A stretch of DNA of 64,000 bases, from NCBI GenBank assembly GCA_007135805.1, contig SLID01000099.1, positions 1,882 to 65,881 of the forward strand, in the 5' to 3' direction. This document shows positions 2,730 through 64,000 of this stretch, one piece after another; the first letter of the stretch is position 1, and each line of letters starts with the position of its first letter. The notes beneath the pieces were generated by a model. It was not told the DNA's origin, made no database searches, and saw only the letters and a list, made by a program, of their open reading frames with translations. The position numbers and the translations under genes were made by a program. This DNA is from Candidatus Omnitrophota bacterium. Its GTDB lineage: Bacteria > Omnitrophota > Gorgyraeia > Tantalellales > Tantalellaceae.

Positions 2730-4313
2730 ATGGCTAAAGGGTATCTGGCACTTGTTCTTCACGCGCATCTTCCTTTCATACGTCATCCTGAACATGAAAG
2801 TTTTCTGGAAGAGAACTGGCTTTTCGAGGCTATCACCGACACTTACATACCTCTCATAAACGTTTTTGACAGCCTCATTTCGGACGGCGTGGATTTTCGC
2901 ATAACGGTTTCACTCAGCCCGACATTGATGGCCATGCTCAGGGATGATCTGCTCATATCGAGGTATCACGCCCACATGGACAAGCTTATAACGCTGGCTC
3001 AGCTGGAAGTCGAGAGAACGCGGTCGGATAAAAGGGTCAACGATCTGGCGGTGATGTACCTCGAAAGGTTCCGCAACGCCAAGAGTGTTCTTTCCGACAA
3101 GTATGGCAACGACCTTCTATCAGCTTTCAAGAAATTTCAGGATCTAGGCAGGGTCGAGGTAATAACGTGTTGCGCCACTCACGGGTTTTTACCGTTGATG
3201 GATGTCGCAAGGTCTGCCGTCAGGGCTCAGGTGGAAGTAGCTGTAAAAGCTTACAAGGAAGTTTTCGGGCAACCTCCGAAGGGGATGTGGCTTCCCGAAT
3301 GCGCTTATCTTCCGGGCCATGACGAAATACTCAATGAGTTCGGAATAAGTTACTTTTTTGTTGAGACTCACGGCGTCCTTTTCGGGTCACCCCGTCCCAA
3401 GTATGGGGTCCACAGTCCCTATCTCTGCAAGTCGGGGACGGCGGTTTTCGCGAGGGACATGGAAAGCTCAAAAGCGGTATGGAGTTCCAAGGAAGGTTAC
3501 CCCGGTGATTATAACTACAGGGAGTACTACCGCGACATAGGTTTTGATCTGGATTACGACTATGTTAAGCCTTATATCAACGGTTGCGGTACCCGCGTGA
3601 ATACTGGTATAAAATACCACAAGATAACCGGTGACGCCGACCACAAAGACCTTTACGATCGGAACAGGGCGCTGGAGAGGGCCGCGGACCACGCCGGAAA
3701 TTTCATGTTCAACAGAGAAAAACAAGTGGAACATCTCTCGGAGATGATGGATAGGAAACCTGTGATAGTTTCGCCTTATGACGCTGAACTTTTCGGTCAT
3801 TGGTGGTTTGAGGGACCCGAATGGCTGGGATACCTTTTCAGAAAAATGCACTTTGACCAGGACAATTTGAAAAGCATCACGCCGGGAGATTTCCTGAAAC
3901 TTTACGACAGGTTCCCTGTAATAACGCCCTCGGCCTCGACCTGGGGTTACAAGGGATACAACGAGGTGTGGCTTGACGGTTGTAACGATTGGATATACAA
4001 ACATCTTCATAAGATGGCCGAGATAATGACAACGGACGCCCGCGATTACGAGGGTCCGACTCCCCTGGAAAGAAGAGTACTGAACCAGATGGCAAGAGAG
4101 CTTCTGCTGGCACAGTCCAGCGATTGGGCGTTTATAATGAAAACCGGGACTTTTGTGGAGTACGCTGTCAACAGGACACGGGAACACATAGGCAGGTTTC
4201 TTGCCCTTCATAAACAGCTCAGGGAGGGGGAAATAGACCAGGAAATGGTGGGAGAGGCCGAAAAAAAATTCACGGCTTTCCGTGATATAGATTACAGGGT
4301 CTATGCCGGATAG
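2730..4313 (+). CDS. 1,4-alpha-glucan branching enzyme, GH57 type
   Basis: ATG at 2730 is in frame with track ORF 2655..4313 and preceded by AGGAGGAA. The N-terminus MAKGYLALVLHAHLPFIRHPE is the hallmark start of GH57 branching enzymes (Thermus/Thermococcus type). 528 aa. Confidence 0.85.
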   Translation: MAKGYLALVLHAHLPFIRHPEHESFLEENWLFEAITDTYIPLINVFDSLISDGVDFRITVSLSPTLMAMLRDDLLISRYHAHMDKLITLAQLEVERTRSDKRVNDLAVMYLERFRNAKSVLSDKYGNDLLSAFKKFQDLGRVEVITCCATHGFLPLMDVARSAVRAQVEVAVKAYKEVFGQPPKGMWLPECAYLPGHDEILNEFGISYFFVETHGVLFGSPRPKYGVHSPYLCKSGTAVFARDMESSKAVWSSKEGYPGDYNYREYYRDIGFDLDYDYVKPYINGCGTRVNTGIKYHKITGDADHKDLYDRNRALERAADHAGNFMFNREKQVEHLSEMMDRKPVIVSPYDAELFGHWWFEGPEWLGYLFRKMHFDQDNLKSITPGDFLKLYDRFPVITPSASTWGYKGYNEVWLDGCNDWIYKHLHKMAEIMTTDARDYEGPTPLERRVLNQMARELLLAQSSDWAFIMKTGTFVEYAVNRTREHIGRFLALHKQLREGEIDQEMVGEAEKKFTAFRDIDYRVYAG

Positions 4314-4660: not shown

Positions 4661-4767
4661 CAGGTCTACCGTTACTGTGACATGATCGCCTTGATCCCCG
4701 GTCAGGTTCCGTGTTTCTGGGCTTTCTGTCTTTCTGTTCGCGGGCTTTGCCCGAGAGGATATTACTG

Positions 4768-6024
4768 ATGAAGAAGGTTCTATCGGTCATACTCGGCGGA
4801 GGGCAGGGTACGCGGCTTTTTCCTCTTACGAAAGAGAGGTGTAAGCCGGCTGTGCCACTGCTTGGGAAATACCGTCTTATAGACATTCCTGTGAGCAATT
4901 GTCTTAATTCCGGTTTTAACAGGATATATGTGCTTACTCAGTTCCTTTCCGAATCGCTCAACAAACATATAAGCCGTACTTACAAAATGGACACTTTTTC
5001 CAAAGGTTTTATTGAAGTAATGGCGGCGGAACAGTCCATGGAGGATACGCATTGGTTCCAGGGTACCGCTGACGCGGTACGCAGATGCCTGAAACACTTC
5101 AACGACCCGGCAATACAGCATATCCTGGTGCTTTCCGGAGACCAGCTTTATAAGATGGATCTGGACGACATGTACAGATATCACCTTGAAAAGGACGCCG
5201 ACTTGACCGTAGCGTGTAATTATGTTCCCGAGAGCGAAGTAGGCGGTCTGGGAATAATGGGTATAGGGAAAGACAGTCGCATAAAACGTTTCAAGGAAAA
5301 ACCCGGGAGTGTTGATGACATCAGGGACATGGCCGTATCCGGCAAGTCTGGGGGGAAAAGTTTTCTGGGATCTATGGGAATATATCTTTTCAAAAAAGAA
5401 GCTCTGGTGGATCTTCTGGTAAACAGCAGGGAGGTAGATTTTGGAAGAGAGGTCATCCCAATAGCCATAGAGAAGAAAAACACCTACGCGTATCTTTTTG
5501 ACGGCTATTGGAGGGACATCGGAACGATAAAGAATTTTTATTCGGAGAACCTGGCCCTGGCGGGTCAAATCCCCCCCATGGATATGTTTGACGAAAAATG
5601 GCAGATCTTTACCCGTACGCGTTATTTGTCCCCGGCAAAGTTTGAGGATTGTTCCGTGGCCCAGAGCATTATCGCCGAGGGAAGTATAGTGCTTTCGGCC
5701 AGTATAAAAAATTCTGTAATAGGTTTGAGGTTCAGGGTCGAACCGGGAACAGTAATAGAGGACTGCGTAGTTATGGGGTGTGATTATTACCAAACCGCCG
5801 AACAGAACTCTTCCGATATCTCATCCTCTGTTCCAATTCTCGGGGTAGGGAAGAACTGTCACATAAGAAGGGCCATAATCGATAAGAACGTCCGTATAGG
5901 CGATAATGTGAAGATCCTCAACGAAGACAACGTCGAGCACGCCGACGGACCCAATTACTATATCCGGGAAGGCATAACCGTTATTCCCAAGAATGCAGTG
6001 GTAGAGCCCGGCACGGTCATATGA
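4768..6024 (+). CDS. glgC: Glucose-1-phosphate adenylyltransferase
   Basis: Track ORF 4711..6024. The in-frame ATG 4768 gives MKKVLSVILGGGQGTRLFPLT, the canonical NTP-transferase G-rich start. About 418 aa, with a C-terminal left-handed beta-helix region. Confidence 0.9.
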   Translation: MKKVLSVILGGGQGTRLFPLTKERCKPAVPLLGKYRLIDIPVSNCLNSGFNRIYVLTQFLSESLNKHISRTYKMDTFSKGFIEVMAAEQSMEDTHWFQGTADAVRRCLKHFNDPAIQHILVLSGDQLYKMDLDDMYRYHLEKDADLTVACNYVPESEVGGLGIMGIGKDSRIKRFKEKPGSVDDIRDMAVSGKSGGKSFLGSMGIYLFKKEALVDLLVNSREVDFGREVIPIAIEKKNTYAYLFDGYWRDIGTIKNFYSENLALAGQIPPMDMFDEKWQIFTRTRYLSPAKFEDCSVAQSIIAEGSIVLSASIKNSVIGLRFRVEPGTVIEDCVVMGCDYYQTAEQNSSDISSSVPILGVGKNCHIRRAIIDKNVRIGDNVKILNEDNVEHADGPNYYIREGITVIPKNAVVEPGTVI

Positions 6025-6688: not shown

Positions 6689-8134
6689 TTGAGTGGGATT
6701 TTCGGGGTAGTTTCAAAGGAAGATTGCGCGGAGCTTCTTCTATACGGGACAGACTATCACTCCCATATGGGTACGGAATACGGCGGTATGGCTCTTCTCG
6801 GAGACGAGTTCCAGAGGCAGATACACAACATAAGCCACGGACAGTTCAAATCCAAGTTTCACGAAGATACCTGCCGCATGAAGGGCAATAAGGGTATAGG
6901 CGTCATAAGCGACAGCAACGAACAGCCCATGTACCTGAATTCCAGGTTCGGGCCTTTCTGCATAGTGACTAACGGCCTGATCGATAATGCCGAAGAACTG
7001 GCCCGGGAACTCATGGCCCGGGGAGTTTCTTTCAGCGAGATGTGTGGAGATTCCGTCAACATCACGGAACTTATTTCCAAGATAATCTGCACGGGAGAAG
7101 ACCTGATAGACGGCATAAACGAGGTCTTTAAAAAAATAGAGGGCTCTTGTTCGATGCTCATACTTACCCACGAGGGTATCTACGCGGCGAGGGACCGTCT
7201 CGGGTATACACCCCTTGTAGTAGGTAGAAGGGAAGGAGCATGGGCCGTAACTTCTGAAACCACAGCATTCCCCAATAACCGTTTCGACCCGGTAAAGTAT
7301 CTCGGCCCTTCAGAAATAGTCCTGCTTACAGAGGATGGTATGGCTGCCTGTCAGGGTGAAAGCCAGGAAAAACAGGTCTGCGCGTTTTTATGGATATACT
7401 CCGGATTTCCCGCCTCAAGCTATGAAGGTATAAATACGGAAGTGGTAAGGGAGAGATGCGGCAAGGCCTTGGCGGCCCGCGACACAGACATCGAAGTAGA
7501 CCTTGTTTCAGGCATCCCTGACTCCGGTATAGGCCATGCGCTGGGTTATGCCATGGGGTCGGGTAAGCCTCTCAGGAGGCCTCTTGTAAAGTATACCCCC
7601 GGGTACGGCAGAAGCTATACCCCTCCTTTGCAAGGCAGGCGGGATCTTGTGGCGACAATGAAGCTTATACCCATAAAAGAGGTTGTTGACGGCAACAGAA
7701 TAGTTGTTTGTGAGGACTCTATCGTAAGGGGGACACAACTTAAGAATTTCACCGCCAAAAAGCTCTGGGATTCGGGAGCTAAGGAGATCCATGTAAGAGT
7801 GGCATGTCCTCCTTTGTTGTTCCCGTGCAGGTTCTGTTTATCTACGAGGACGATAGACGAACTTGCTGCCAGAAAAGCCATAAAAAGTCTCGAGGGCAGG
7901 GACATAGAAGATGTTTCTGAATATTCCGATCACACTTCCGGCAAGTACGCCGATCTTGTGGGCTGGATAAGGAAGGATATAGGCGTGACAACTCTCAGGT
8001 ACCAGACTATCGAGGATATGGTGCGGTCGGTCGGCCTTCCAAAAGAGCAGTTGTGTACTTACTGCTGGACAGGCGAGACTTGTTCCAGACGGGGTTCCGC
8101 CAGGCCGTGCTCTGCTGAGCGGGACTCGTTATGA
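6689..8134 (+). CDS. Amidophosphoribosyltransferase (PurF)-family protein: class-II Ntn glutamine amidotransferase domain plus type-I PRTase domain; no canonical start codon upstream of the TTG
   Basis: TTG start. C-terminal PRPP motif RIVVCEDSIVRGTQL and N-domain ARDRLGYTPLVVG match PurF. The first translated residues are M-S-G-I-F-G, whereas PurF has M-C-G-I-V-G. Upstream in frame: TAA TGG AGG TGT GAT then TTG. Confidence 0.7.
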   Translation: MSGIFGVVSKEDCAELLLYGTDYHSHMGTEYGGMALLGDEFQRQIHNISHGQFKSKFHEDTCRMKGNKGIGVISDSNEQPMYLNSRFGPFCIVTNGLIDNAEELARELMARGVSFSEMCGDSVNITELISKIICTGEDLIDGINEVFKKIEGSCSMLILTHEGIYAARDRLGYTPLVVGRREGAWAVTSETTAFPNNRFDPVKYLGPSEIVLLTEDGMAACQGESQEKQVCAFLWIYSGFPASSYEGINTEVVRERCGKALAARDTDIEVDLVSGIPDSGIGHALGYAMGSGKPLRRPLVKYTPGYGRSYTPPLQGRRDLVATMKLIPIKEVVDGNRIVVCEDSIVRGTQLKNFTAKKLWDSGAKEIHVRVACPPLLFPCRFCLSTRTIDELAARKAIKSLEGRDIEDVSEYSDHTSGKYADLVGWIRKDIGVTTLRYQTIEDMVRSVGLPKEQLCTYCWTGETCSRRGSARPCSAERDSL

Positions 8135-8551: not shown

Positions 8552-8644
8552 GTTCTGCCGGAATTTTGCGGGTGTTTTTCTTCTGAGCTGTAACATCTCA
8601 GTCATCCGCGGAAATATAGCGTCTCAACGCCCGTCTTTGCGAAC

Positions 8645-8677
8645 CCGCCGAAGGCGGGTGAAGCAATCCCAATAAAC
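8645..8677. repeat. Second copy of hairpin motif TTGCGAACC-[CCCGCC gaa GGCGGG]-TGAAGCAATC
   Basis: Stem 8652-8668. Flanks are identical to the motif at 23265..23300, while the stem bases are swapped and still pair. The upstream 8610-8644 resembles a degenerate copy of the 61-bp unit. Confidence 0.75.
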
Positions 8678-8791
8678 AAATGTTGCCGGGTATTTTTCCC
8701 GCGCGTAATATTTTATCGGTCTCCCTCGGAAGTCTTCGCCACTGAAAACCCTCCGCCCCGCTCCCGGGACCAAAAACTTCCAAAAAACTGG

Positions 8792-8820
8792 TTGAACGTT
8801 ACGGCCCCAGGATATATAAT
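8792..8820 (+). promoter_or_regulatory. Sigma70 consensus-like promoter (TTGAAC-17-TATAAT) for gap-pgk-tpiA-secG
   Basis: -35 at 8792-97, -10 at 8815-20, 68 nt upstream of the gap ATG. Confidence 0.65.
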
Positions 8821-8872
8821 ACACATTCAAAATCCGGGGAAGTGTTCCTAAGGTAAGGTGAAAACAGGTTAA

Positions 8873-12624: not shown

Positions 12625-14272
12625 AAAGTTCCGTTTTTCCGGATCGGTCAGGTATAAGAACAGAGGGCCATTGCCGATTTTGAGGGTAGTGGCCCTTTCT
12701 TTTGTATTTTTGTCTCACCCCGCGGTTGCTGTCGGGGAAGAGCCGGAAATAATCCCAAGGGACGCCTACGTGTCGGCCGGGATAGGAGACGCCAGGGTGC
12801 TTATACCTTTTCTCGCCGACGACGTGACATCCAGTTCCATATGCAACCTCGTATATAACGGACTGACAAAGGTGGACAAAGATCTTAATGTTGTTCCGGA
12901 TCTCGCCGAAAGCTGGGAGATCTCGGAAGACGGGCTGGAGATCGTTTTTCGCCTGAGAAAAGACGTTTACTGGCATGACGGAGAACCCTTCACCGCGGAT
13001 GATGTCAAGTTCACCTACGACCTTATCCTGGATCCGGTTACGGCCTGTCCATATGTATCAAGCTACAGCCAGATAAAGACCGTAGAGGTAGTGGATCAGA
13101 GTACTGTGCGCTTTGTTTACAGTGAACCGTACGCTCCGGCGATACTGAAGCTTGGGATGGGAATAGTACCCAAACATCTTTTTCGGGATGTAGAAGACCT
13201 TAGGCGAAGCGTTTATGCCAGAAAACCAGTTGGCACGGGGCCTTATAAGTTCGTGGAGTGGAAAACCGGAGAGTACATGGTGCTGGAAGCTAATGAAGAT
13301 TATTTTCTACATACTCCTCGCATCAAGCGTTATGTTTACCGCATAATCCCGGACCAGAGTGTGCAGTTTCTGGAGCTTGTAACGGGTGGGATCGATTCAA
13401 TGGAACTTAATCCCTATCAGTTCCTTTACCGCAGTGAGACCCCGGAGTTCCGAGAGAGGGTAAAAAAATACAGATACCTGTCACGTTCGTATACTTTTGT
13501 GGGATACAACCTTAACGATCCCATACTTGGTGACAAACGTGTGCGGCAGGCCCTGAGCTACGCGATAAACGAGAAGGACCTTATTGATTCGGTCATGCTG
13601 GGCCAGGCCGAACCCATATCCGGACCTTTTATAAAGGGATCCGCCTATTATAACCCGTTGGCCAGGGCGTATGATCACGATATCCTGAAAGCTGCCATGC
13701 TTTTGAGAGAAGCCGGGTGGGCTGACGTCGACGGGTCGGGTGTACTTTCAAAGGACGGGCGCCCGCTCCATATAGTTATAGCTACCAATCAGGGCAGCCA
13801 GGTCAGAGAGGACGTGGCTACGGTGATACAAAGCCACTGGGCGAAATTGGGTGTGAGCAGCGAGATACAGGTCATCGCCTGGTCGGCTTTTCTTAACCAG
13901 TTTATCGACAAGCGGAATTTTCAGGCGGTGATCCTCGGGTGGACCATACCAACAGATCCCGATATTTTCGCTGTCTGGCATTCAAGTTCAGCGGTTACCG
14001 GCGGCCTCAACTTTGTGTCTTTTTCCAATGAGGAAGTGGACGCCCTGATAGAGAGGGGCCGTAGGGAGTTCTGCCCTGAAGAAAGAAAAGAGATATACCA
14101 AAAAGCTCACGCCCTTATAGCTGAGGAGGCGCCTTATACTTTTCTTTTTTCCCCTTATTCTCTCCCGGCCGTAAGCCGTCGGGTGAAAGGCATAGTTCCC
14201 GCCCCGGCTGGTATAGGTTATAATCTTATCGAGTGGTATGTCCCGGAGGAAGAGATAAGGTACAGGTTTTGA
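12593..14272 (+). CDS. ABC transporter substrate-binding protein, family 5 (oligopeptide/dipeptide/nickel type)
   Basis: SBP_bac_5-like sequence with signal peptide LRVVALSFVFLSHPAVA. The start is uncertain: track 12542, ATG 12593, or TTG 12671 right before the signal peptide. The 5' end overlaps the secG tail. Confidence 0.8.
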   Translation: MRTVRKKTPGKKFRFSGSVRYKNRGPLPILRVVALSFVFLSHPAVAVGEEPEIIPRDAYVSAGIGDARVLIPFLADDVTSSSICNLVYNGLTKVDKDLNVVPDLAESWEISEDGLEIVFRLRKDVYWHDGEPFTADDVKFTYDLILDPVTACPYVSSYSQIKTVEVVDQSTVRFVYSEPYAPAILKLGMGIVPKHLFRDVEDLRRSVYARKPVGTGPYKFVEWKTGEYMVLEANEDYFLHTPRIKRYVYRIIPDQSVQFLELVTGGIDSMELNPYQFLYRSETPEFRERVKKYRYLSRSYTFVGYNLNDPILGDKRVRQALSYAINEKDLIDSVMLGQAEPISGPFIKGSAYYNPLARAYDHDILKAAMLLREAGWADVDGSGVLSKDGRPLHIVIATNQGSQVREDVATVIQSHWAKLGVSSEIQVIAWSAFLNQFIDKRNFQAVILGWTIPTDPDIFAVWHSSSAVTGGLNFVSFSNEEVDALIERGRREFCPEERKEIYQKAHALIAEEAPYTFLFSPYSLPAVSRRVKGIVPAPAGIGYNLIEWYVPEEEIRYRF

Positions 14273-15301: not shown

Positions 15302-16117
15302 ATGAATATGCGCCTGATATTCGGGATAGCGATAGTGGTATTTATGGGAGTGAGCGCCCTGCTGGCCCCTGTTATCGCTACGCATGATCCGCTTGAGGTA
15401 GATCTTTCAGCCGAAGCTCGTCTTCAGCCTCCGTCGATGAAACATTTTTTCGGCACGGATAATCTGGGAAGGGACGTTTACAGCAGGATGGTATACGGCG
15501 CCAGGGTATCCTTAAGCGTCGGGTTCATAGCCGTGGCCATATCTCTCCTGATAGGTTTGACGCTTGGCGGAATAAGCGGTTATTACGGGGGATGGGTGGA
15601 CGGGGTCATAATGCGGATGGTCGAGATAATGTATTGTTTTCCCACGTTCTTTCTGATAATGATGGTCATAACTTTTCTGGGTCCCAGTATAGTCAATGTC
15701 ATGATCGTGATAGGACTGACAAGCTGGGCCGGCCTGTGCCGGCTGGTGCGGGCGGAGTTTCTTACTCTCAGAGAGCGTGATTTTGTTTTTTCGGCCAGAG
15801 TACAGGGAGTCTCTCATTCCAGGATAATTTTCCGCCACATATTGCCCAACGCCATGGCTCCGGTATATGTCAGCGCGACTTTGAGCGTTGGAGGCGCCAT
15901 TCTTGTGGAAAGCGCTCTATCATTTCTTGGGCTTGGCGTTCAGATACCCGCTCCGAGCTGGGGGAATATACTCACGTCGGGCAAGGGGTACATGGATTAT
16001 GCCTGGTGGCTTACGCTATACCCCGGTCTCGCGATCCTTATAACGGTATTGAGCTTTAATCTGATTGGCGAAGGACTGAGGGATATCCTTGATCCCAAAA
16101 TGAGCAGGGCCCGGTAG
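15302..16117 (+). CDS. ABC transporter permease (OppC/DppC-like)
   Basis: 271 aa. Conserved binding-protein-dependent transport EAA-like region. Confidence 0.85.
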   Translation: MNMRLIFGIAIVVFMGVSALLAPVIATHDPLEVDLSAEARLQPPSMKHFFGTDNLGRDVYSRMVYGARVSLSVGFIAVAISLLIGLTLGGISGYYGGWVDGVIMRMVEIMYCFPTFFLIMMVITFLGPSIVNVMIVIGLTSWAGLCRLVRAEFLTLRERDFVFSARVQGVSHSRIIFRHILPNAMAPVYVSATLSVGGAILVESALSFLGLGVQIPAPSWGNILTSGKGYMDYAWWLTLYPGLAILITVLSFNLIGEGLRDILDPKMSRAR

Positions 16118-17880: not shown

Positions 17881-18014
17881 GGCAAATCATGAACGGAGGG
17901 GAGTATGGCGCCGGGCTGGGTTTTGTCCGGATCCGTAGATACCTGCCGGCGATCAAGGGCGGGTCCCGACCAGCGGGACGCGGGTGAGTCCGGCAGATGC
18001 CAAGGAGAATAACT

Positions 18015-19295
18015 ATGGGATATACTATAACCGAAAAAATACTGCTTTCACATTCCAGGGGGACCAGGAGCATAGCTCCTGGAGACTTTGTAATGGCTGA
18101 CGTGGATCTGTGTTTGGGGAATGATGTAACAAGCCCTATAGCCATAAAGGAGTTCAGGGAACTAGGTTTCGACAGGGTGTTCAACAGTAAGAGAGTCCTG
18201 CTTGTGCCAGATCATTTTCTGCCCGCCAAGGATATGAAAAGCGCCAACCAGGCCCGGTTGCTTAAGGATTTCGCGGAAGAGTTTAAGATCGATAACTATT
18301 TCGAACTCGGGGAAATGGGTGTAGAGCATGCCCTTTTGCCTGAGAGAGGGATCATACTTCCCGGGGATCTTATGATAGGCGCCGACTCGCATACATGCAC
18401 ACACGGCGCTCTTGGGGCCTTCGCGACAGGTGTCGGGTCCACCGACCTTGGTTACGCGATGGCTTTCGGGGAATGCTGGCTTAAGGTTCCGGAGACCATA
18501 AAGATCGTTCTTACGGGAAAACCTCGAAAGTGGGTAGGGGGCAAAGATATAATCTTGCATATAATCTCGGACCTTGGGGTTTCGGGGGCTCTCTACAAAG
18601 CGATGGAATTCGCGGGGGACACTTTACAATACCTGGATATGGATGACAGGTTTAGCATATGCAACATGGCTGTTGAAGCCGGGGCCAAGAACGGTATAGT
18701 CCCGCCGGACAAGATCACGGAAAGCTATGTGAAGGCCGCGATAAGAAAGTACAAGCCTTCGCGCAAGACTTATAAGGCCGTCAAGAGTGATAAGGACGCG
18801 GTTTACTCGGAGACCAGAGAGTACAACGTGTCAAAATTGGAGCCCGTGGTGGCCGCTCCCGATCTCCCGTCGAACGGAAAGCCGGTAAGCGGCTATAAGA
18901 ATGTCAAGGTTGACCAGGTTGTCGTGGGTTCTTGCACTAACGGGCGGATAAGCGATCTAAAGACAGCGGCCTCTGTTCTGAAAGGAAAAAGAGTTTCGCC
19001 TGATGTGCGTCTGGTGGTAATACCCGCGACCCAGGATGTGTACAGGGAGGCGGTCAAACAGGGGTATGCCGAGATATTCGTAAAAGCGGGTGGGACTTTT
19101 TGTACGCCCAGCTGCGGACCGTGCCTCGGAGGCCATATGGGTATACTTTCGGAGGGAGAGGTCGCGTTAGCTACGACCAACCGGAACTTTGTGGGACGTA
19201 TGGGGCATCCCAAAAGCCTGGTTTACCTGTCTAACCCGGCTATTGCCGCCGCTTCGGCGGTGAAGGGTATTATAGCCCATCCATCCGACCTTTAA
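18015..19295 (+). CDS. leuC: 3-isopropylmalate dehydratase large subunit (type 2/archaeal-like aconitase-family large subunit)
   Basis: ATG 18015 with AAGGAG 7 nt upstream gives MGYTITEKILLSHS. About 426 aa (short LeuC/HACN type). Followed by the small subunit and leuB. Confidence 0.85.
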   Translation: MGYTITEKILLSHSRGTRSIAPGDFVMADVDLCLGNDVTSPIAIKEFRELGFDRVFNSKRVLLVPDHFLPAKDMKSANQARLLKDFAEEFKIDNYFELGEMGVEHALLPERGIILPGDLMIGADSHTCTHGALGAFATGVGSTDLGYAMAFGECWLKVPETIKIVLTGKPRKWVGGKDIILHIISDLGVSGALYKAMEFAGDTLQYLDMDDRFSICNMAVEAGAKNGIVPPDKITESYVKAAIRKYKPSRKTYKAVKSDKDAVYSETREYNVSKLEPVVAAPDLPSNGKPVSGYKNVKVDQVVVGSCTNGRISDLKTAASVLKGKRVSPDVRLVVIPATQDVYREAVKQGYAEIFVKAGGTFCTPSCGPCLGGHMGILSEGEVALATTNRNFVGRMGHPKSLVYLSNPAIAAASAVKGIIAHPSDL

Positions 19296-19389
19296 CGCGC
19301 CGGGACCGTTGTCCGGCGCTACTATGATGTAACGGCAAAAAAGGACAGGAAAGATTTATTCTCCTGCCCGTAAATCAGAGGTGGACCAG

Positions 19390-19893
19390 ATGAAGTTCAA
19401 AGGAAAGGTACATAAGTTCGGGGATAATGTGAATACCGATGAGATAATACCCGCGCGATACCTTAATACGTCAGACCCCGAGGAGTTGGCGAAGCATTGC
19501 ATGGAAGACGCCGACCCCGAATTCGTTGAAAAAGCGGTTGAGGGAGACATTATTTTCGGTGGTGAAAATTTTGGATGCGGATCTTCCAGAGAACACGCCC
19601 CAATAGCCATAAAGGCTTTTGGTGTTTCATGCGTCGTAGCTAAAAGTTTCGCCCGTATATTCTACCGCAACGCCATCAACATAGGACTGCCGATATTCAC
19701 GAGTGAAGATGCCGTGCGGGATATAAAGACGGGCGATAAGGTCGAAGTTGACGCGGTTAAAGGACAGATAAAAAAGGTCGGCAGAAAAGGGTCTTTCAAT
19801 GTTGAGGTCTTCCCGAAATTCATAAAGGAAATAGTTGCAAGCGGAGGACTCATGGGATACGCCGCGAAAAAGGCCAGGCGGGTAAAACAGTAA
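19390..19893 (+). CDS. leuD: 3-isopropylmalate dehydratase small subunit (type 2)
   Basis: MKFKGKVHKFGDNVNTDEIIPARYL is the type-2 LeuD start. GAGGTGG RBS. Track ORF starts at GTG 19381. Confidence 0.85.
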   Translation: MKFKGKVHKFGDNVNTDEIIPARYLNTSDPEELAKHCMEDADPEFVEKAVEGDIIFGGENFGCGSSREHAPIAIKAFGVSCVVAKSFARIFYRNAINIGLPIFTSEDAVRDIKTGDKVEVDAVKGQIKKVGRKGSFNVEVFPKFIKEIVASGGLMGYAAKKARRVKQ

Positions 19894-22064: not shown

Positions 22065-22799
22065 ATGAGGAACGTAAAACTGACTATCGCTTACGACGGC
22101 ACAGCCTACAAAGGCTGGCAGGTACAGAAAAACGGCCGGACCGTACAGGCCGAGATAGAAAAAGCTATAGCCAGGGTGATAGGATCAAAACACACGGTAC
22201 ACGGCGCGGGACGTACGGACGCGGGAGTTCATGCCATAGCACAGGTCGCTAATTTCAAAGCCCCCATAAACTTTGATGTTGCCAGGATACCCCCCGCCCT
22301 TAATACCGTTCTTCCCGGGGACATAGCCGTAAAAAAAGCGGAAGAAGTTCCGCCGGATTTTCACTCCAGATTCGACGCCAGGGCTAAAGTCTACAGTTAC
22401 AGGATAGTCGTGAGCCGCGCGCGCGATCCCTTTTCCGAAAGATATGTCTGGAGGTTGCCGTACGCCCTTGATGAAAGAATTATGAGAGAAGAGGCCCGTG
22501 TTCTTATTGGGAAACATGATTTCAAGAGTTTTCAGGCCTCGGACAAGAGGGAGCGTTCATCGGTCCGTACGATCAAGAGCATAAGCATCCAGAGGACCGG
22601 AAGCAATATTACCTTAGACATCGAGGGTGACGGATTTCTTTACAACATGGTCCGCAGTATAGCGGGAACCCTGGTGGACATAGGAAGAGGTTATCTTCTT
22701 CCGGGGAGTATGACGGATATACTTGCCTCCCGTGATCGAAAAAAAGCCGGTCCCACTGCCCCCGCCAAGGGTTTATTCCTTGTCAAAGTGAAGTACTGA
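22065..22799 (+). CDS. truA: tRNA pseudouridine(38-40) synthase
   Basis: 244 aa. IAYDGTAYKGWQ start and GAGRTDAGVHA catalytic Asp motif. Confidence 0.9.
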   Translation: MRNVKLTIAYDGTAYKGWQVQKNGRTVQAEIEKAIARVIGSKHTVHGAGRTDAGVHAIAQVANFKAPINFDVARIPPALNTVLPGDIAVKKAEEVPPDFHSRFDARAKVYSYRIVVSRARDPFSERYVWRLPYALDERIMREEARVLIGKHDFKSFQASDKRERSSVRTIKSISIQRTGSNITLDIEGDGFLYNMVRSIAGTLVDIGRGYLLPGSMTDILASRDRKKAGPTAPAKGLFLVKVKY

Positions 22800-22889
22800 A
22801 TATAGACCGCTCCCGGCATGCGGCAATTTCCTTATTTGCCCCGGCAGCGGGAGTCTTTATGTACCTTCTATCTTGCTTTTTATCCCGCT

Positions 22890-23015
22890 TCCGGCGCCTT
22901 ACTGGCGCGGTCATTGTGAAGCTTTCGCGGTGAATGACTGATATTCCCTTTGAGGGACGCTCGGTTTTCCCAGCGCGGAAATCATCGCTGGGCGGACTCC
23001 CTCGCTCTTTCTGCT
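22890..23015. repeat. Dispersed ~125-nt intergenic sequence element, copy A
   Basis: About 80% identical over about 100-125 nt to 42191..42315. Shared blocks CATTGTGAAG(C)TTTCGCG(R)TGAAT ... GATATTCCCTT(Y)GAGGG(R)CGCTCG ... TCCTCGCTCTT. Confidence 0.7.
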
Positions 23016-23022
23016 CGGGACA

Positions 23023-23277
23023 CATCGCGAACCATGCCCGCTCGGCGAACATTTCATTTATACGCGGGAACTTTCAGTCCCGTCATCGCGAACCATGCCC
23101 GCTCGGCGAACATTTCATTTATACGCGGGAACTTTCAGTCCCGTCATCGCGAACCATGGCCGTTCGGCGAACATTTCATTTATCCGCGGTAACTTTCAAT
23201 CCCGTCATCGCGAACCATGGCCGTTCGGCGAACATTTCATTTATCCGCGGTAACTTTCAATCCCGTCATCGCGAACC
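23023..23277. repeat. Tandem direct repeat, 61-bp unit x 4.2 copies
   Basis: Units start at 23023, 23084, 23145 and 23206, with a partial unit at 23267. Units 1-2 are identical and units 3-4 are identical; the two subtypes differ at a few positions. There are no spacers, so it is not a CRISPR array. Confidence 0.95.
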
Positions 23278-23300
23278 CCGCGAAGCGGGGTGAAGCGATC
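23265..23300. repeat. Conserved hairpin motif CGCGAACC-[CCCCGC gaa GCGGGG]-TGAAGCGATC terminating the tandem array
   Basis: 7-bp GC stem (23275-23291) with GAA loop. The same motif, with compensatory stem changes, is at 8645..8677. Confidence 0.8.
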
Positions 23301-23560
23301 TCAGTTTAAAAACATTTAGTTTTTCCGGAAACAATCGATATGCTGAAAGTCGCCTTGTTACAGAGGAAAGTACAAAGCTCCTTAAAGTTATAAGGAGCCT
23401 TCCGTAAACAGTCTCTCTCCGAGATGTTTCAATTTGATGGCATCACTTCGCCGCCCCCTTCGGGGCGCCCTCGTGATCGTGTCGTTTAGATTTACCGCAG
23501 ATGAGTGATGGTTGCTTTCGGCATTCCTCATCAGGCGATAATACTTTTTTAGTCCCTAAT

Positions 23561-23602
23561 TTGACAAGTATAAATACTTGCTGTATACTTGTTGTGTACT
23601 TG
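23561..23602 (+). promoter_or_regulatory. Sigma70-like promoter (TTGACA-17-TATACT) with three TACTTG direct repeats phased at 11 bp
   Basis: -35 at 23561-66 and -10 at 23584-89. TACTTG at 23575, 23586 and 23597, each preceded by TGT(A/G). The repeats overlap the -10 and the start site, as an operator would. Confidence 0.65.
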
Positions 23603-23626
23603 TAAAAGTTTTGTTGAGAGGTTGAT

Positions 23627-23797
23627 ATGGCCAGAAAGAGGGGATTCAAATTCTATTCCACTGTATCGGACCGGGGGCAGATATTTATACCCAAAGTCCT
23701 GCAGGATTATTTTGGTATACGTAAGCGCGATAAGGTGGAGTTTATTGTGAAAGACGACGGGAGCATAGTGTTCGCAAAGAAGGAGGGGAAAGAGTGA
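23627..23797 (+). CDS. AbrB/MazE/SpoVT-family swapped-hairpin DNA-binding protein (56 aa)
   Basis: Not in the ORF track (below 60 aa). MARKRGFKFYSTVSDRGQIFIPKVLQDYFGIRKRDKVEFIVKDDGSIVFAKK fits the SpoVT/AbrB domain pattern (..rGQvtIPk.iR..lgi..GDkvef.v.ddg.ivl.k). GAGAGG RBS 5 nt upstream, consensus promoter upstream. Confidence 0.7.
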   Translation: MARKRGFKFYSTVSDRGQIFIPKVLQDYFGIRKRDKVEFIVKDDGSIVFAKKEGKE

Positions 23798-23973
23798 AGA
23801 AAAAAAACAGGACCCATTCGCACAAGGTGACGATCAATGATCAGCGGCGGGTAAACAAGATGGCCTCGGATCTAGGCAGCAAACCCGTTTCGAAAAAGGT
23901 CGTACACAATGTATTCGAGACATATTACAAGAATCAGGTAAAAGCTCTTTACCGGGCTGTTCTTGGAGAATAA
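23794..23973 (+). CDS. Small basic hypothetical protein (59 aa), translationally coupled to the AbrB-like gene
   Basis: GTG start overlaps the upstream stop (GTGA). Strong SD AAGGAGG lies 7 nt upstream, inside the upstream gene. Product VKKKNRTHSHKVTINDQRRVNKMASDLGSKPVSKKVVHNVFETYYKNQVKALYRAVLGE has no family I recognise. Alternative ATG at 23860. Confidence 0.4.
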   Translation: MKKKNRTHSHKVTINDQRRVNKMASDLGSKPVSKKVVHNVFETYYKNQVKALYRAVLGE

Positions 23974-40227: not shown

Positions 40228-41162
40228 TCAGACCGGAATTTGACGCGAAATACAAGGAACACCTGCAAAGAAAGATAAAAGAGCTTAAGAAGTCCTGCGG
40301 AGCGCTACTGGTAGCCCATAACTATCAGCGTGACGAAATACAGGAAATAGCGGATATTGTGGGCGATTCCTACGCTCTTGCCCGTGACGTGAAACTCGCC
40401 CCGGAGAAAACGATAGTTTTTTGCGGAGTGAAATTTATGGCGGAAAGCGCCGCTATGCTCAGCCCCGAAAAAACGATACTGCTTCCCGTGGAGGAGGCGG
40501 GTTGTCCTCTGGCCGATATGGCGACTGCCGACAAACTGCGCAAGAAAAGGGAACAATATCCCGAGGCCGCGGTTGTGTGTTATGTGAACTCGACGGCGGC
40601 GGTTAAAGCTGAAAGTGATATTTGCTGTACTTCGTCGAACGCCATACAGGTAGTAAAGTCTATGAAAGAGGATAAGATCATATTTGTGCCCGACAAGAAC
40701 CTTGGACGGTATGTGCGTGAACATGTTCCCGAGAAGGAACTTATACTGTGGGACGGCTATTGTGTGGTCCATATGCGTCTTACTCGCGAAGAGGTTATCA
40801 CAACAAAACAGCTTTATCCCGGAGCCGAGTTCATCGCCCACCCTGAATGCCGGCGGGAAGTCCTGGAAGAGGCGACCTATGTCGGCAGTACGGCCGGTAT
40901 GCTCAAGTACGTCGGGGAAAGCCCCTCTGAAGAATTCATAGTAGGTACTGAGCCCGGGATAATCTACAGGATGAAAAGGAACAATCCCGAAAAAAAATTC
41001 TATATTCCGACTGACCAGTTTATCTGCGCCAATATGAAACTTACGACGCTTGGTTGGGTAGCGCGTTCTCTTGAGAAACAGATATACAAGATAGAAGTCC
41101 CGGAAAATGTCGTGAAAAAAGCCCGCCGGACACTCGAACGCATGATAGAGGTGGTTAAATGA
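40224..41162 (+). CDS. nadA: Quinolinate synthase
   Basis: TTG start. LVAHNYQRDEIQEIADIVGDS and Fe-S cysteine pattern. 312 aa. Confidence 0.85.
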   Translation: MIRPEFDAKYKEHLQRKIKELKKSCGALLVAHNYQRDEIQEIADIVGDSYALARDVKLAPEKTIVFCGVKFMAESAAMLSPEKTILLPVEEAGCPLADMATADKLRKKREQYPEAAVVCYVNSTAAVKAESDICCTSSNAIQVVKSMKEDKIIFVPDKNLGRYVREHVPEKELILWDGYCVVHMRLTREEVITTKQLYPGAEFIAHPECRREVLEEATYVGSTAGMLKYVGESPSEEFIVGTEPGIIYRMKRNNPEKKFYIPTDQFICANMKLTTLGWVARSLEKQIYKIEVPENVVKKARRTLERMIEVVK

Positions 41163-41974
41163 CAAAGAAAAAAATTATTGGTATCGTGGGATGCGGGTCG
41201 ATTGGCTCAGCCCTGGCCTTGAAAGCCGACGAGTCTATGTCAGACAGGGTTTCGGCCCTGGTGCTTTTCGATAAGGACGCGCCTAAGGCATTGGAACTGG
41301 CTTCGGCTGTCGAGAGGTCCGAAACCGCGGGTTCGGCGTCACGCGTCGCTGAAATATCGGACATCGTGGTGGAGGCGGCGCATCCGGACGCGGCCCCGGG
41401 AGTGCTGGATCTTGCCGTAAAAGCCGGTAAGGACGCCATGATACTCAGTATCGGGGGGCTCATCGGACATGAACGGCTTCTCGCCGCTGCGTCCTCCGCT
41501 GGGATAACGGTCATAATGCCTTCAGGGGCCGTGGCGGGAATAGACGCGGTCAAAGCCGCTAAAATAGCCGGAATAAGTTCTGTAACGCTTACCACGCGGA
41601 AATCTCCGGCTTCCCTGGAAGGAGCGCCCTACATAAGGGATAAGGGCATAGACATCGGTTCTATAAAAGGAGAGACCCTTATATTTGAAGGCAGTGCCCT
41701 GGAGGCCGTCGCGGCTTTCCCCCGCAACATAAATGTTTCGGCCCTGCTGTCTATTGCCGGTATGGGTCCCGAGCAAACAAAAGTGCGGATAGTGACATCC
41801 CCGGAATATAGCCGCAACACCCATGAGATAAGGGTCCAATCTGCCGCCGGCAAATTCACTTTTATCACGGAGAACGTACCTTTTCCATCAAATCCCAAAA
41901 CCAGCCATCTGGCCGCGCTTTCGGCTATAGCCGCGCTGGAAGAATACCTTTCGGGAATACATATCGGAACATAA
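41159..41974 (+). CDS. nadX: L-aspartate dehydrogenase
   Basis: 271 aa. IGIVGCGSIGSALA NAD-binding start. Start overlaps the nadA stop. Confidence 0.75.
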   Translation: MTKKKIIGIVGCGSIGSALALKADESMSDRVSALVLFDKDAPKALELASAVERSETAGSASRVAEISDIVVEAAHPDAAPGVLDLAVKAGKDAMILSIGGLIGHERLLAAASSAGITVIMPSGAVAGIDAVKAAKIAGISSVTLTTRKSPASLEGAPYIRDKGIDIGSIKGETLIFEGSALEAVAAFPRNINVSALLSIAGMGPEQTKVRIVTSPEYSRNTHEIRVQSAAGKFTFITENVPFPSNPKTSHLAALSAIAALEEYLSGIHIGT

Positions 41975-42190
41975 AAAATAAGGATAGCGACCGTTTTTTG
42001 AGGTCAAAGGTTACTGGTTCGGAGAAAGCCCCCCCGAAACGGCTAAAGTAGGGTGTAATTCTAATTAGATCCTCCGCCAGGCGTAATTTTATAAAAAGAA
42101 GTTTTCAAAGGCCATGTGACAACTTCCTTTGCGGTGACAAGGAACGACGGGATCTGCTACATGGTTTCTCATTTTATCTCTATCACGCTG

Positions 42191-42315
42191 CCGGCATCTT
42201 ATTAGCGGCGGCATTGTGAAGTTTCGCGATGAATAGCGGATATTCCCTTCGAGGGGCGCTCGATTTCCCCGGCGAGGAGATCTTCGCGCGACGCACTTCC
42301 TCGCTCTTATAAAGG
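42191..42315. repeat. Dispersed ~125-nt intergenic sequence element, copy B
   Basis: Aligns to 22890..23015 (see copy A). Lies between the nadX stop and the promoter of the Na/Pi cotransporter gene. Confidence 0.7.
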
Positions 42316-42366
42316 TTGTGATCTTCTTGCGACGGGATCTAGTTAGAGATCAGAGATCAAATATTC

Positions 42367-63008: not shown

Positions 63009-63044
63009 CCCGAGCGTATCCCGGCTGGCCGGGATACGCTCGGG
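63009..63044. other. Perfect 17-bp inverted repeat hairpin immediately 3' of ppdK
   Basis: CCCGAGCGTATCCCGGC-tg-GCCGGGATACGCTCGGG. There is no U-tract on either strand. Confidence 0.8.
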
Positions 63045-63932: not shown

Positions 63933-64000
63933 CGGCCCAGGCCGCGCGTAGATCTCGGAAAATCCAGAACAACAGAAATGCTAGATGTGATATATCGCCC

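Follow-up and report, generated by a model that had tools for sequence, protein, structure and literature searches.

In a 64,000-nucleotide (nt) stretch of a Candidatus Omnitrophota contig (referred to here as the window), two intergenic segments, copy A at 22881-23009 and copy B at 42181-42308, closely resemble each other. Our data suggest that the shared element is probably the left part of a noncoding interspersed repeat of approximately 170 to 186 nt that resembles a MITE (miniature inverted-repeat transposable element), is comparable to ERIC and BOX elements, and forms a new family. The kind of element is already known and ordinary; the family itself is new. It has at least three copies within 74 kb of this genome, and two diverged copies were found in relatives. 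The complete unit has terminal inverted repeats (TIRs) at both ends, and because the two ends pair, a single strand of the unit would close into a highly stable multi-branched hairpin. Copy A is a full unit in which tandem duplication of the right module has produced a 61-nt array, and copy B is a unit minus its right half. A sequence-only reading of this DNA had offered three options, namely a small RNA family, a remnant of a miniature mobile element, and a lineage-specific REP-like element, of which the second is the best supported.

Copies of the element in the window, the contig, and relatives

When each locus was compared with the window by blastn, copies A and B aligned over 129 nt at 79% identity, with a single 1-nt indel (E = 5e-26), and a repeat search of the window recovered the pair as family D2 with 80% identity across 87 ungapped nt. 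The similarity claimed by the sequence-only reading is thus genuine and far above chance, and every conserved block that it listed is seen in a MAFFT alignment of the two copies. Fainter homology runs on leftward to about 22862 and 42163, and the right edge is abrupt at 23009 and 42308, ending in CTCGCTCTT. Both copies are intergenic, in agreement with the noncoding location proposed for them. Copy A starts 82 nt past the stop codon of truA (22065-22799; PseudoU_synth_1), and copy B starts 207 nt past the stop codon of an Asp_DH/NadX-type gene (41159-41974), with a Na/Pi-cotransporter-PhoU gene downstream. The element had also been placed upstream of a promoter; a promoter does exist after copy A (23561-23589), but it is 550 nt off rather than adjacent.

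Blastn and the repeat search found no copies in the window beyond A and B. The description of the element as occupying two distant loci holds inside the window only, since a third copy sits on the same contig past the right end of the window. This full copy, copy C, lies on the minus strand 9 kb past that end (L083 18990-18848, E = 3e-24; L083 is the continuation of the contig, in which window position 64000 is 10932). Copy C is flanked by two plus-strand genes, an Alginate_exp gene and a MamF-like gene, and is thus inverted relative to its neighbors. The sequence that comes after it shows homology to the linker of copy A and the beginning of the 61-nt unit.

We also analyzed contigs of related Candidatus Omnitrophota (L084 to L092), covering approximately 20 kb per relative compared with approximately 74 kb of this genome. 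TruA assigns the window organism to Candidatus Omnitrophota; this exact protein was found on one contig, and the next relatives have TruA proteins that are at most 71% identical. A profile of copies A, B, and C identified copy R in the oppF-leuC spacer of L089 (5736-5904; E = 1.4e-8, and 1e-16 with an improved profile) and copy S in the oppC-oppD spacer of L092 (3760-3936; E = 2e-10, then 7e-16). TruA of these two relatives is 69% (L089) and 65% (L092) identical to that of the window. A covariance model of a 140-nt piece returned copies A, B, and C alone from the 261 kb searched, and covariance model and nhmmer searches of 261 kb and 1.3 Mb, respectively, found no copies beyond A, B, C, R, and S. 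Nothing similar was found by blastn among annotated phages and plasmids. Exact-pattern scans are an unsuited method here, as the conserved blocks are not invariant in relatives; one block gave no match in genome representatives, two blocks gave 0 and 0 matches in JGI metagenomes, and two blocks gave 1 and 6 matches in IMG/VR, none extending past the pattern and all attributable to chance.

The complete unit is bounded by inverted repeats

An inverted-repeat search showed that the complete unit spans approximately 170 to 186 nt between TIRs, in the order left TIR, two-helix core, variable GC hairpin, right module, and right TIR, with ends of the form …ACAGACATT… and …AATGTCTG…. The 125-nt stretch that had been taken for a self-contained unit is rather the left two-thirds of a TIR-bounded repeat of approximately 175 nt together with approximately 60 nt of upstream hairpins. 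In copy A, the left TIR TTCGCGGTGAATGACTGATATTCCC (22924-22948, plus strand) pairs with 23067-23093 and occupies the same position as the TIRs of copies C, R, and S. The linker and first right module follow the core (23010-23093, plus strand) and end in the right TIR GGGAACTTTCAGTCCCGTCATCGCGAA (23067-23093), which closes the first full unit at 22924-23093. Compared with shuffled sequences, the TIRs of three copies are far above chance (P < 0.001 each): copy C, GCAAATGACAGACATTCCC … GGGAATGTCTGCCATTTGC, 19 nt, 95%, z = 10.0; copy S, 42 nt, 76%, z = 10.2; and copy R, 34 to 39 nt, z = 9.0. The TIR of copy A comprises 27 nt with two gaps (z = 2.3, P = 0.047).

We found no inverted partner downstream of the left arm of copy B (TIR test z = -0.2). 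Covariance model and nhmmer matches extend across the left TIR and full two-helix core of this copy (42223-42308, plus strand), and the right module and right TIR are missing. Copy B therefore reads as a unit truncated after the core, and the suggestion of a remnant fits this copy, which lost its right side. The right module of copy A (U-like) has homologs in copies C and R, again on the right side, and in L086 (nhmmer E 1e-10 to 1e-13); L086 carries the right module alone, a fragment complementary to copy B.

The 61-nt tandem array comprises 4.2 units (23023-23280, plus strand; repeat search D1), and the right arm recurs within it at 23067-23079 and 23128-23140. Because every 61-nt unit bears the right TIR, and because the U-like module has these homologs in C, R, and L086, the array is the right end of copy A, tandemly duplicated. 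The link between copy A and the array, which had been noted before, holds on this basis. The array contains 2.2 units (L001 10959-11094) rather than 4.2 in an assembly from ENA (ERZ27301263 k141_454202, an 84.6-kb metagenome contig containing the window), and the rest of the 1-kb comparison is identical. This difference reflects either genuine population copy-number variation or collapse by the k141 assembler.

The fold predicted for the unit is a long closing stem, formed by the paired ends, around two or three internal hairpins. For four whole units, the folding energies are -78.1, -80.7, -67.7, and -65.7 kcal/mol (z -5.6, -8.3, -6.4, and -3.2), the last value being that of the copy A unit (22921-23097), and in no case did any of 200 dinucleotide shuffles match the stability of the unit. 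An isolated piece of approximately 150 nt folds unremarkably on either strand (z -0.1 to -1.6). The minus strands of whole units fold equally well or better (-66.7, -89.2, -83.1, and -101.3 kcal/mol). A preference for the sense strand was considered, as hairpin 2 (22911-22933) folds on the plus strand only in A, B, and C and six of six one-sided changes in the core helices keep wobble pairing on the plus strand. It was dropped, as the whole-unit folds and the TIR transition mismatches (about 10 versus 4, counted from alignments) favor the minus strand and offset these signals. The unit has no net strand preference.

Filled and empty spacers

The order truA, PrlF/MazE-like gene, small open reading frame (ORF), rplM, rpsI, and argC is kept in L085, L086, L087, L089, L091, and L092. 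The truA-prlF spacer is 92, 114, 175, and 203 nt in L085, L086, L087, and L089, respectively, versus 827 nt in the window, and the prlF promoter with its ATACTTGT repeats is kept at the distal end of the spacer in relatives. Because the spacers of relatives are short while the distal prlF promoter is conserved, approximately 650 to 750 nt of the truA-prlF spacer, including copy A, is lineage specific. A similar pattern was found at other sites. The oppC-oppD spacer is 0 to 31 nt in L086, L087, L089, and the window contig versus 192 nt in L092, where copy S, a 177-nt unit, fills the spacer from 3 nt past the oppC stop codon up to the AGGAGG of oppD. The oppF-leuC spacer is empty in L087, contains the right module alone in L086, and contains the full unit in L089; the TruA proteins of L086 and L089 are 82% identical to each other. 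The copies in relatives are always intergenic and lie at sites non-orthologous to those of the window copies.

These comparisons also bear on whether the copies arose by segmental duplication of a regulatory region, in which case they would be immobile clusters of binding sites for one regulator of the adjoining genes. All three copies of this genome carry the palindrome TCCCTTYGAGGGA unchanged, and copies A and B lie upstream of plus-strand genes. However, the adjoining genes are functionally unrelated (the prlF-like regulator pair, the Na/Pi transporter, and the MamF-like protein), copy C is inverted, and copies R and S lack the palindrome. Furthermore, the conservation of 130 to 180 nt with TIRs far exceeds the size of an operator, and the true prlF promoter and operator lie elsewhere and are conserved in relatives that lack the element. 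We regard a duplicated regulatory region as very improbable.

The PrlF/MazE-like pair was itself considered as part of a recent insertion, a possibility that is ruled out by the conservation of the pair and its promoter in relatives. The pair (window 23561-23973) comprises a PrlF/MazE(AbrB)-like gene of 56 to 59 amino acids (aa) and a partner of 57 to 59 aa at the same truA-rplM site in L085, L086, L087, L089, L091, and L092. It looks like a conserved, housekeeping-linked pair rather than a recently gained toxin-antitoxin cassette. The conserved TTGACA promoter of prlF overlaps three ATACTTGT repeats, which probably constitute an autoregulated operator.

Two further observations concern the sites of insertion. 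The contigs of the three closest relatives end soon after truA (L084 after 233 nt, L088 after 278 nt, and L090 after 109 nt), and repeats probably explain why the assemblies of close relatives break at this point. In L092, a perfect AGGAGG stands right after the right TIR of copy S (3937-3951), 6 nt before the oppD start codon, and oppD is shorter at its N-terminus, by two codons, than its counterparts in relatives. A new ribosome-binding site for oppD may have arrived with the insertion of copy S or been made necessary by it.

The element is unlikely to encode a protein

We considered whether the element belongs to a small protein gene family, encoding the peptide MTDIPFEGRS(I/V)(S/F)PARKSSL..LPRS with a regulatory hairpin ahead of it. 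An ATG is found at the same position in A and C, the frame is open in A, B, and C, and the MTDIPFEGRS frame has a pN/pS of 0.30, the lowest of six (3,000 neutral simulations; P = 0.0013 for this frame taken singly and 0.027 once the choice among six is allowed for). However, copy B has ATA in place of ATG, the Shine-Dalgarno core is absent in all copies while present in 30 of the 38 genes of the contig, and the C-terminal parts of the frame (119, 38, and 41 codons) are unrelated. The ATG is missing in copies R and S, and indels break the frame in both; copy R carries 7-nt and 1-nt indels while its nucleotide sequence and helices persist. We found no homologous protein for the plus-strand frame among 5.8 billion clusters, which returned only the ORF itself, or for the minus-strand frame among 1.84 billion representatives. 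Nor was there any match to a composite protein query of six frames, but this negative is unreliable given that the same query missed a known 89-aa ORF. The frames of A, B, and C all look alike, as expected at 80% DNA identity. Base-pair-preserving transitions can imitate synonymous change, and such transitions are probably the source of the low pN/pS. Copies R and S largely refute the small-protein reading, which we find hardly credible; the element does not appear to be a gene.

Comparison with known repeat systems

MITEs are small, noncoding, intergenic, multi-copy elements with paired TIRs (PMC3049150). The unit matches this description in its size, lack of coding capacity, TIRs, and dispersed copies with presence and absence among relatives. 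Like the bacterial MITEs Correia/NEMIS of Neisseria, RUP of Streptococcus pneumoniae, and Nezha of cyanobacteria, it is shorter than 200 nt, noncoding, multi-copy, and intergenic, and it shares with MITEs the paired TIRs, the tight fold, the presence or absence at orthologous sites, and the truncated derivatives. The unit has no known sequence similarity to any described MITE family.

BOX elements of Streptococcus pneumoniae and S. suis have the arrangement boxA-(boxB)n-boxC, with end modules of 115 to 133 nt in S. suis, and target-site duplications have been reported for them (PMC3049150). Copy A is similarly composed of a left module, 4.2 copies of a 61-nt module, and a closing hairpin (H hairpin), with a variable number of units (4.2 versus 2.2), and the loci likewise vary in size and combine different modules. 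In contrast to BOX, the repeated module is the right end itself with the right TIR and is not internal, the phylum is different, and no target-site duplications were found. The resemblance would thus be one of architecture only, and we claim no membership.

The unit can also be compared with shorter and longer palindromic repeats. ERIC (or IRU) elements of enterobacteria are imperfect palindromes of approximately 127 nt that are found in transcribed intergenic regions in either orientation and are conserved across genera. The Omnitrophota unit belongs to the same size class, lies in transcribed spacers, including the interior of an operon (copy S), in either orientation, and is conserved at the nucleotide level across fairly distant relatives; the two share the form of one long imperfect hairpin. 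We claim no sequence relationship between them, and the Omnitrophota unit is longer, internally branched, and accompanied by extra modules (the upstream hairpins, M, and H). REP elements are GC-rich palindromes of 20 to 40 nt in very many copies that are mobilized by RAYT, a description from which the unit departs and which only the H module fits. Compared with REP and BIME (PMC2817692), the H hairpin is REP-like (a GC-rich imperfect palindrome of 34 to 40 nt with at least five copies in 74 kb) and is combined with other motifs, and the whole locus is a BIME-like mosaic. The unit is far longer than a REP (170 to 186 nt, branched), and we saw no alternating-orientation REP pairs and no RAYT.

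An intergenic repeat in this window had been called unexpected, which overstates the case: of 613 prokaryotic species, 97% were found to have repeats of their own (PMC3372372). We found no description of small interspersed repeats in Candidatus Omnitrophota in the literature.

Evidence against a MITE-like repeat and the case for a structured RNA

Several observations weigh against a MITE-like origin. A check of the copy ends for target-site duplications, as had been proposed, revealed no direct repeat at A, C, R, or S, and the comparison of filled and empty sites for copy S shows none either, although the empty sites at hand have diverged too far to be compared base by base. We found no transposase or autonomous partner, and no matching insertion sequence, in the gene tables of approximately 74 kb of this genome and approximately 20 kb per relative. 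The outermost bases of the TIRs vary between lineages, unlike typical transposase-binding ends. The unit has a GC content of 0.53 to 0.60 versus 0.50 for the window and is thus not AT-rich, AT-richness being a frequent but not universal feature of MITEs. An upstream segment of approximately 60 nt is common to A, B, and C in three-way alignments and lacking in R and S, and the MITE-like reading does not account for it. Finally, compensatory changes in the two-helix core and its invariant CCAGCG loop could reflect functional selection beyond selfish spread.

The core of copy A (22952-23009, plus strand) consists of an outer helix, GAGGGA (22952-22957) paired with TCCCTC (22998-23003), and an inner helix, GGTTTTC (22963-22969) paired with GGAAATC (22977-22983) below the apical loop CCAGCG; its right edge is that shared with copy B. 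In the RNAalifold structure of the five aligned copies, GAGGGA/UCCCUC encloses GC..GAUUUCC/GGAAAUC..GC with the loop CCAGCG. Overall, 85.6% of cells in this core are paired versus 41 to 58% after sliding the 3' partners. Pair 15-42 is C-G in three copies, U-A in one, and G-C in one, and pair 23-33 is C-G in three, U-G in one, and U-A in one. The covariation score of the core was equaled by 10 of 500 shuffles, and with only five copies the statistics are weak. We consider this covariation moderate support for a conserved structure, coming from five related sequences, rather than proof. An earlier two-copy RNAalifold fold with four "compensatory" pairs was rejected, as its covariation was not significant and the fold was altered once the third copy was added. 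The TCCC-loop-GGGR hairpin highlighted by the sequence-only reading does not vary among the three copies of this genome but is missing from those of relatives, and hence it is not a defining structure.

These data raise the question of whether the unit of approximately 175 nt, or its core, is a functional noncoding RNA (ncRNA) gene family or cis-acting RNA motif kept in multiple copies, with the TIRs acting as its closing helix. The closing helix is retained though its sequence differs between lineages, and the core helices contain C-G/U-A/G-C and C-G/U-G/U-A exchanges along with six one-sided changes that preserve wobble pairing. The left arm and core keep about 60% nt identity between lineages whose TruA proteins are just 65 to 69% identical, with higher identity in the core, and the folding z-scores of whole units reach -8. 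However, Rfam 15 contains no family that matches the element: there were no matches at the gathering threshold in the whole window, the two loci gave only noise even at E <= 10, and the region of copy C matched tRNA only. Crude consensus scans found no sigma-70-like promoter directly upstream of A, B, or C and only weak terminator-like sites inside the core (22990-23007 in copy A and likewise in copy C). Copy S is wedged between the oppC stop codon and the oppD Shine-Dalgarno sequence, leaving no space for a promoter or terminator, and copy C is antisense to its neighbors. Truncated (B and L086) and tandemly amplified (A) forms are repeat-like and atypical of RNA genes, and the minus strand folds as well as or better than the plus strand. 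An independent small RNA gene, the first of the options offered earlier, is unsupported given that the element has no promoter or terminator of its own and that copy S fills a spacer within an operon. Taken together, we consider a structured RNA family or motif unlikely, at perhaps one chance in five.

We also considered a bolder possibility, in which the core and its CCAGCG loop are recognized by a host- or element-encoded factor, making the unit a new and widespread structured RNA or single-stranded DNA (ssDNA) motif of Omnitrophota. We view this as less likely again. If true, such a motif might serve, for example, as a processing or stability signal in operons, or as the hairpin recognized by a transposition system that is not yet described and that produces no target-site duplications.

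Neighboring repeat modules

The MITE-like unit lies among other repeat modules. The upstream segment of copy A (22862-22923, plus strand) comprises a T-rich leader, hairpin 1, which is GC-rich (22891-22910), and part of hairpin 2, namely its 5' arm and loop (22911-22923). The corresponding segment of copy B, with hairpins 1 and 2, was identified by alignment at 42163-42222 (plus strand; hairpin 2 -8.4 kcal/mol, z -3.7). Hairpin 1 still pairs in copy C despite its differing sequence, and hairpin 2 folds at -8.6, -8.4, and -4.7 kcal/mol in the three copies, on the plus strand only. The segment was considered as a relic of the right end of a neighboring unit and rejected, as it has no significant similarity to right-end or H modules.

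Module M, a hairpin-forming sequence (CATGTGACAACTTCC...ACATGG), lies upstream of copy B (42112-42175, plus strand). It is homologous to L083 at approximately 12985-13040 (local alignment z = 11.9) and resembles the sequence upstream of copy A only marginally (P = 0.02). Its recurrence in L083 (12985-13065) adjoins tRNA-Arg repeats and has only a hairpin-1-like stem after it. M and copy B are bracketed by a 13-nt inverted pair (42060-42072 and 42335-42347; 12 of 13 positions), which might mark a bigger composite element.

The H hairpin that closes the array of copy A (23267-23305, plus strand) has the form CGTCATCGCGAACC-CCGC-GAAG-GCGGGG-TGAAGCGATCTC, and an nhmmer profile of five copies matched with E values of 1e-21 to 1e-28. 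A solitary H module (8587-8688, plus strand; nhmmer E = 3e-21) lies outside the TIR-bounded unit in the same intergenic mosaic. The H copies, all on the plus strand, lie at window 8587-8688 and 23231-23328, at L083 12321-12431, 12588-12695, and 12870-12972, and at L084 5338-5394, and have the consensus ATCGC-GAA-CCCGCC-loop-GGCGGG-TGAA-GCGAT. In L084, the nearest relative, both stems are exchanged (ATCC…GGCC-AAA-GGCC…GGAT) while the GAA/UGAAG internal loop is kept (z 6.4). The H-hairpin pattern had no matches in IMG/VR. A faint inverted H-like hairpin is found at window 23427-23508. H is a separate REP-like hairpin family, and the loci are mosaics of several repeat modules in the fashion of BIME.

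The three H copies in L083 follow tRNA-Arg or its duplicated 3' halves. Approximately 1.3 to 2 kb past the window (L083 12239-12972), a tRNA-Arg(CCT) is followed by two tandem repeats of 264 and 275 nt, each containing the 3' 53 nt of the tRNA (a weak Rfam tRNA match), an H hairpin, and a segment of approximately 130 nt. The arrangement resembles stacked attachment-site duplications or a tRNA-linked tandem repeat.

Other repeats unrelated to the unit were found in relatives. In L092, spacer repeats of 110 to 130 nt, partly palindromic, lie at 4746-4860, 7521-7677, 8759-8828, and 15721-15852, and at 17975-18102 and 19293-19419. A 76-nt spacer repeat is found in L091 (2203-2277 and 3350-3424). 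Many spacers in L092 are 130 to 190 nt where other relatives have 10 to 30 nt. Small intergenic repeats seem to be rife in this clade. In the window, the spacer between the PPDK gene and a sigma-70 gene contains a near-perfect palindrome of 36 nt (63009-63044, 94%), which is probably a bidirectional terminator.

Implications

We propose that units of the MITE-like family owe their spread to transposition in trans or to recombination among repeats. The spacers that contain them are transcribed, and in one case the spacer belongs to an operon, so that RNA copied from the units would be expected to form strong hairpins. These may incidentally alter the stability, termination, or translation of neighboring mRNA, as has been reported for BIME and BOX. 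A dedicated cellular function is not needed to account for the data. The family accounts for three oddities of the window: the likeness of two intergenic stretches, the presence of the 61-nt array, and a truA-prlF spacer that is expanded by 750 nt.

Candidatus Omnitrophota is an uncultured phylum that is known from metagenomes alone. Profiles of the family could be used to annotate repeats and flag assembly-prone spots in metagenome-assembled genomes of Omnitrophota and to seek the transposase that mobilizes them. If the core is a functional RNA signal within operons, it would also provide a handle on gene regulation in organisms that have not yet been grown.

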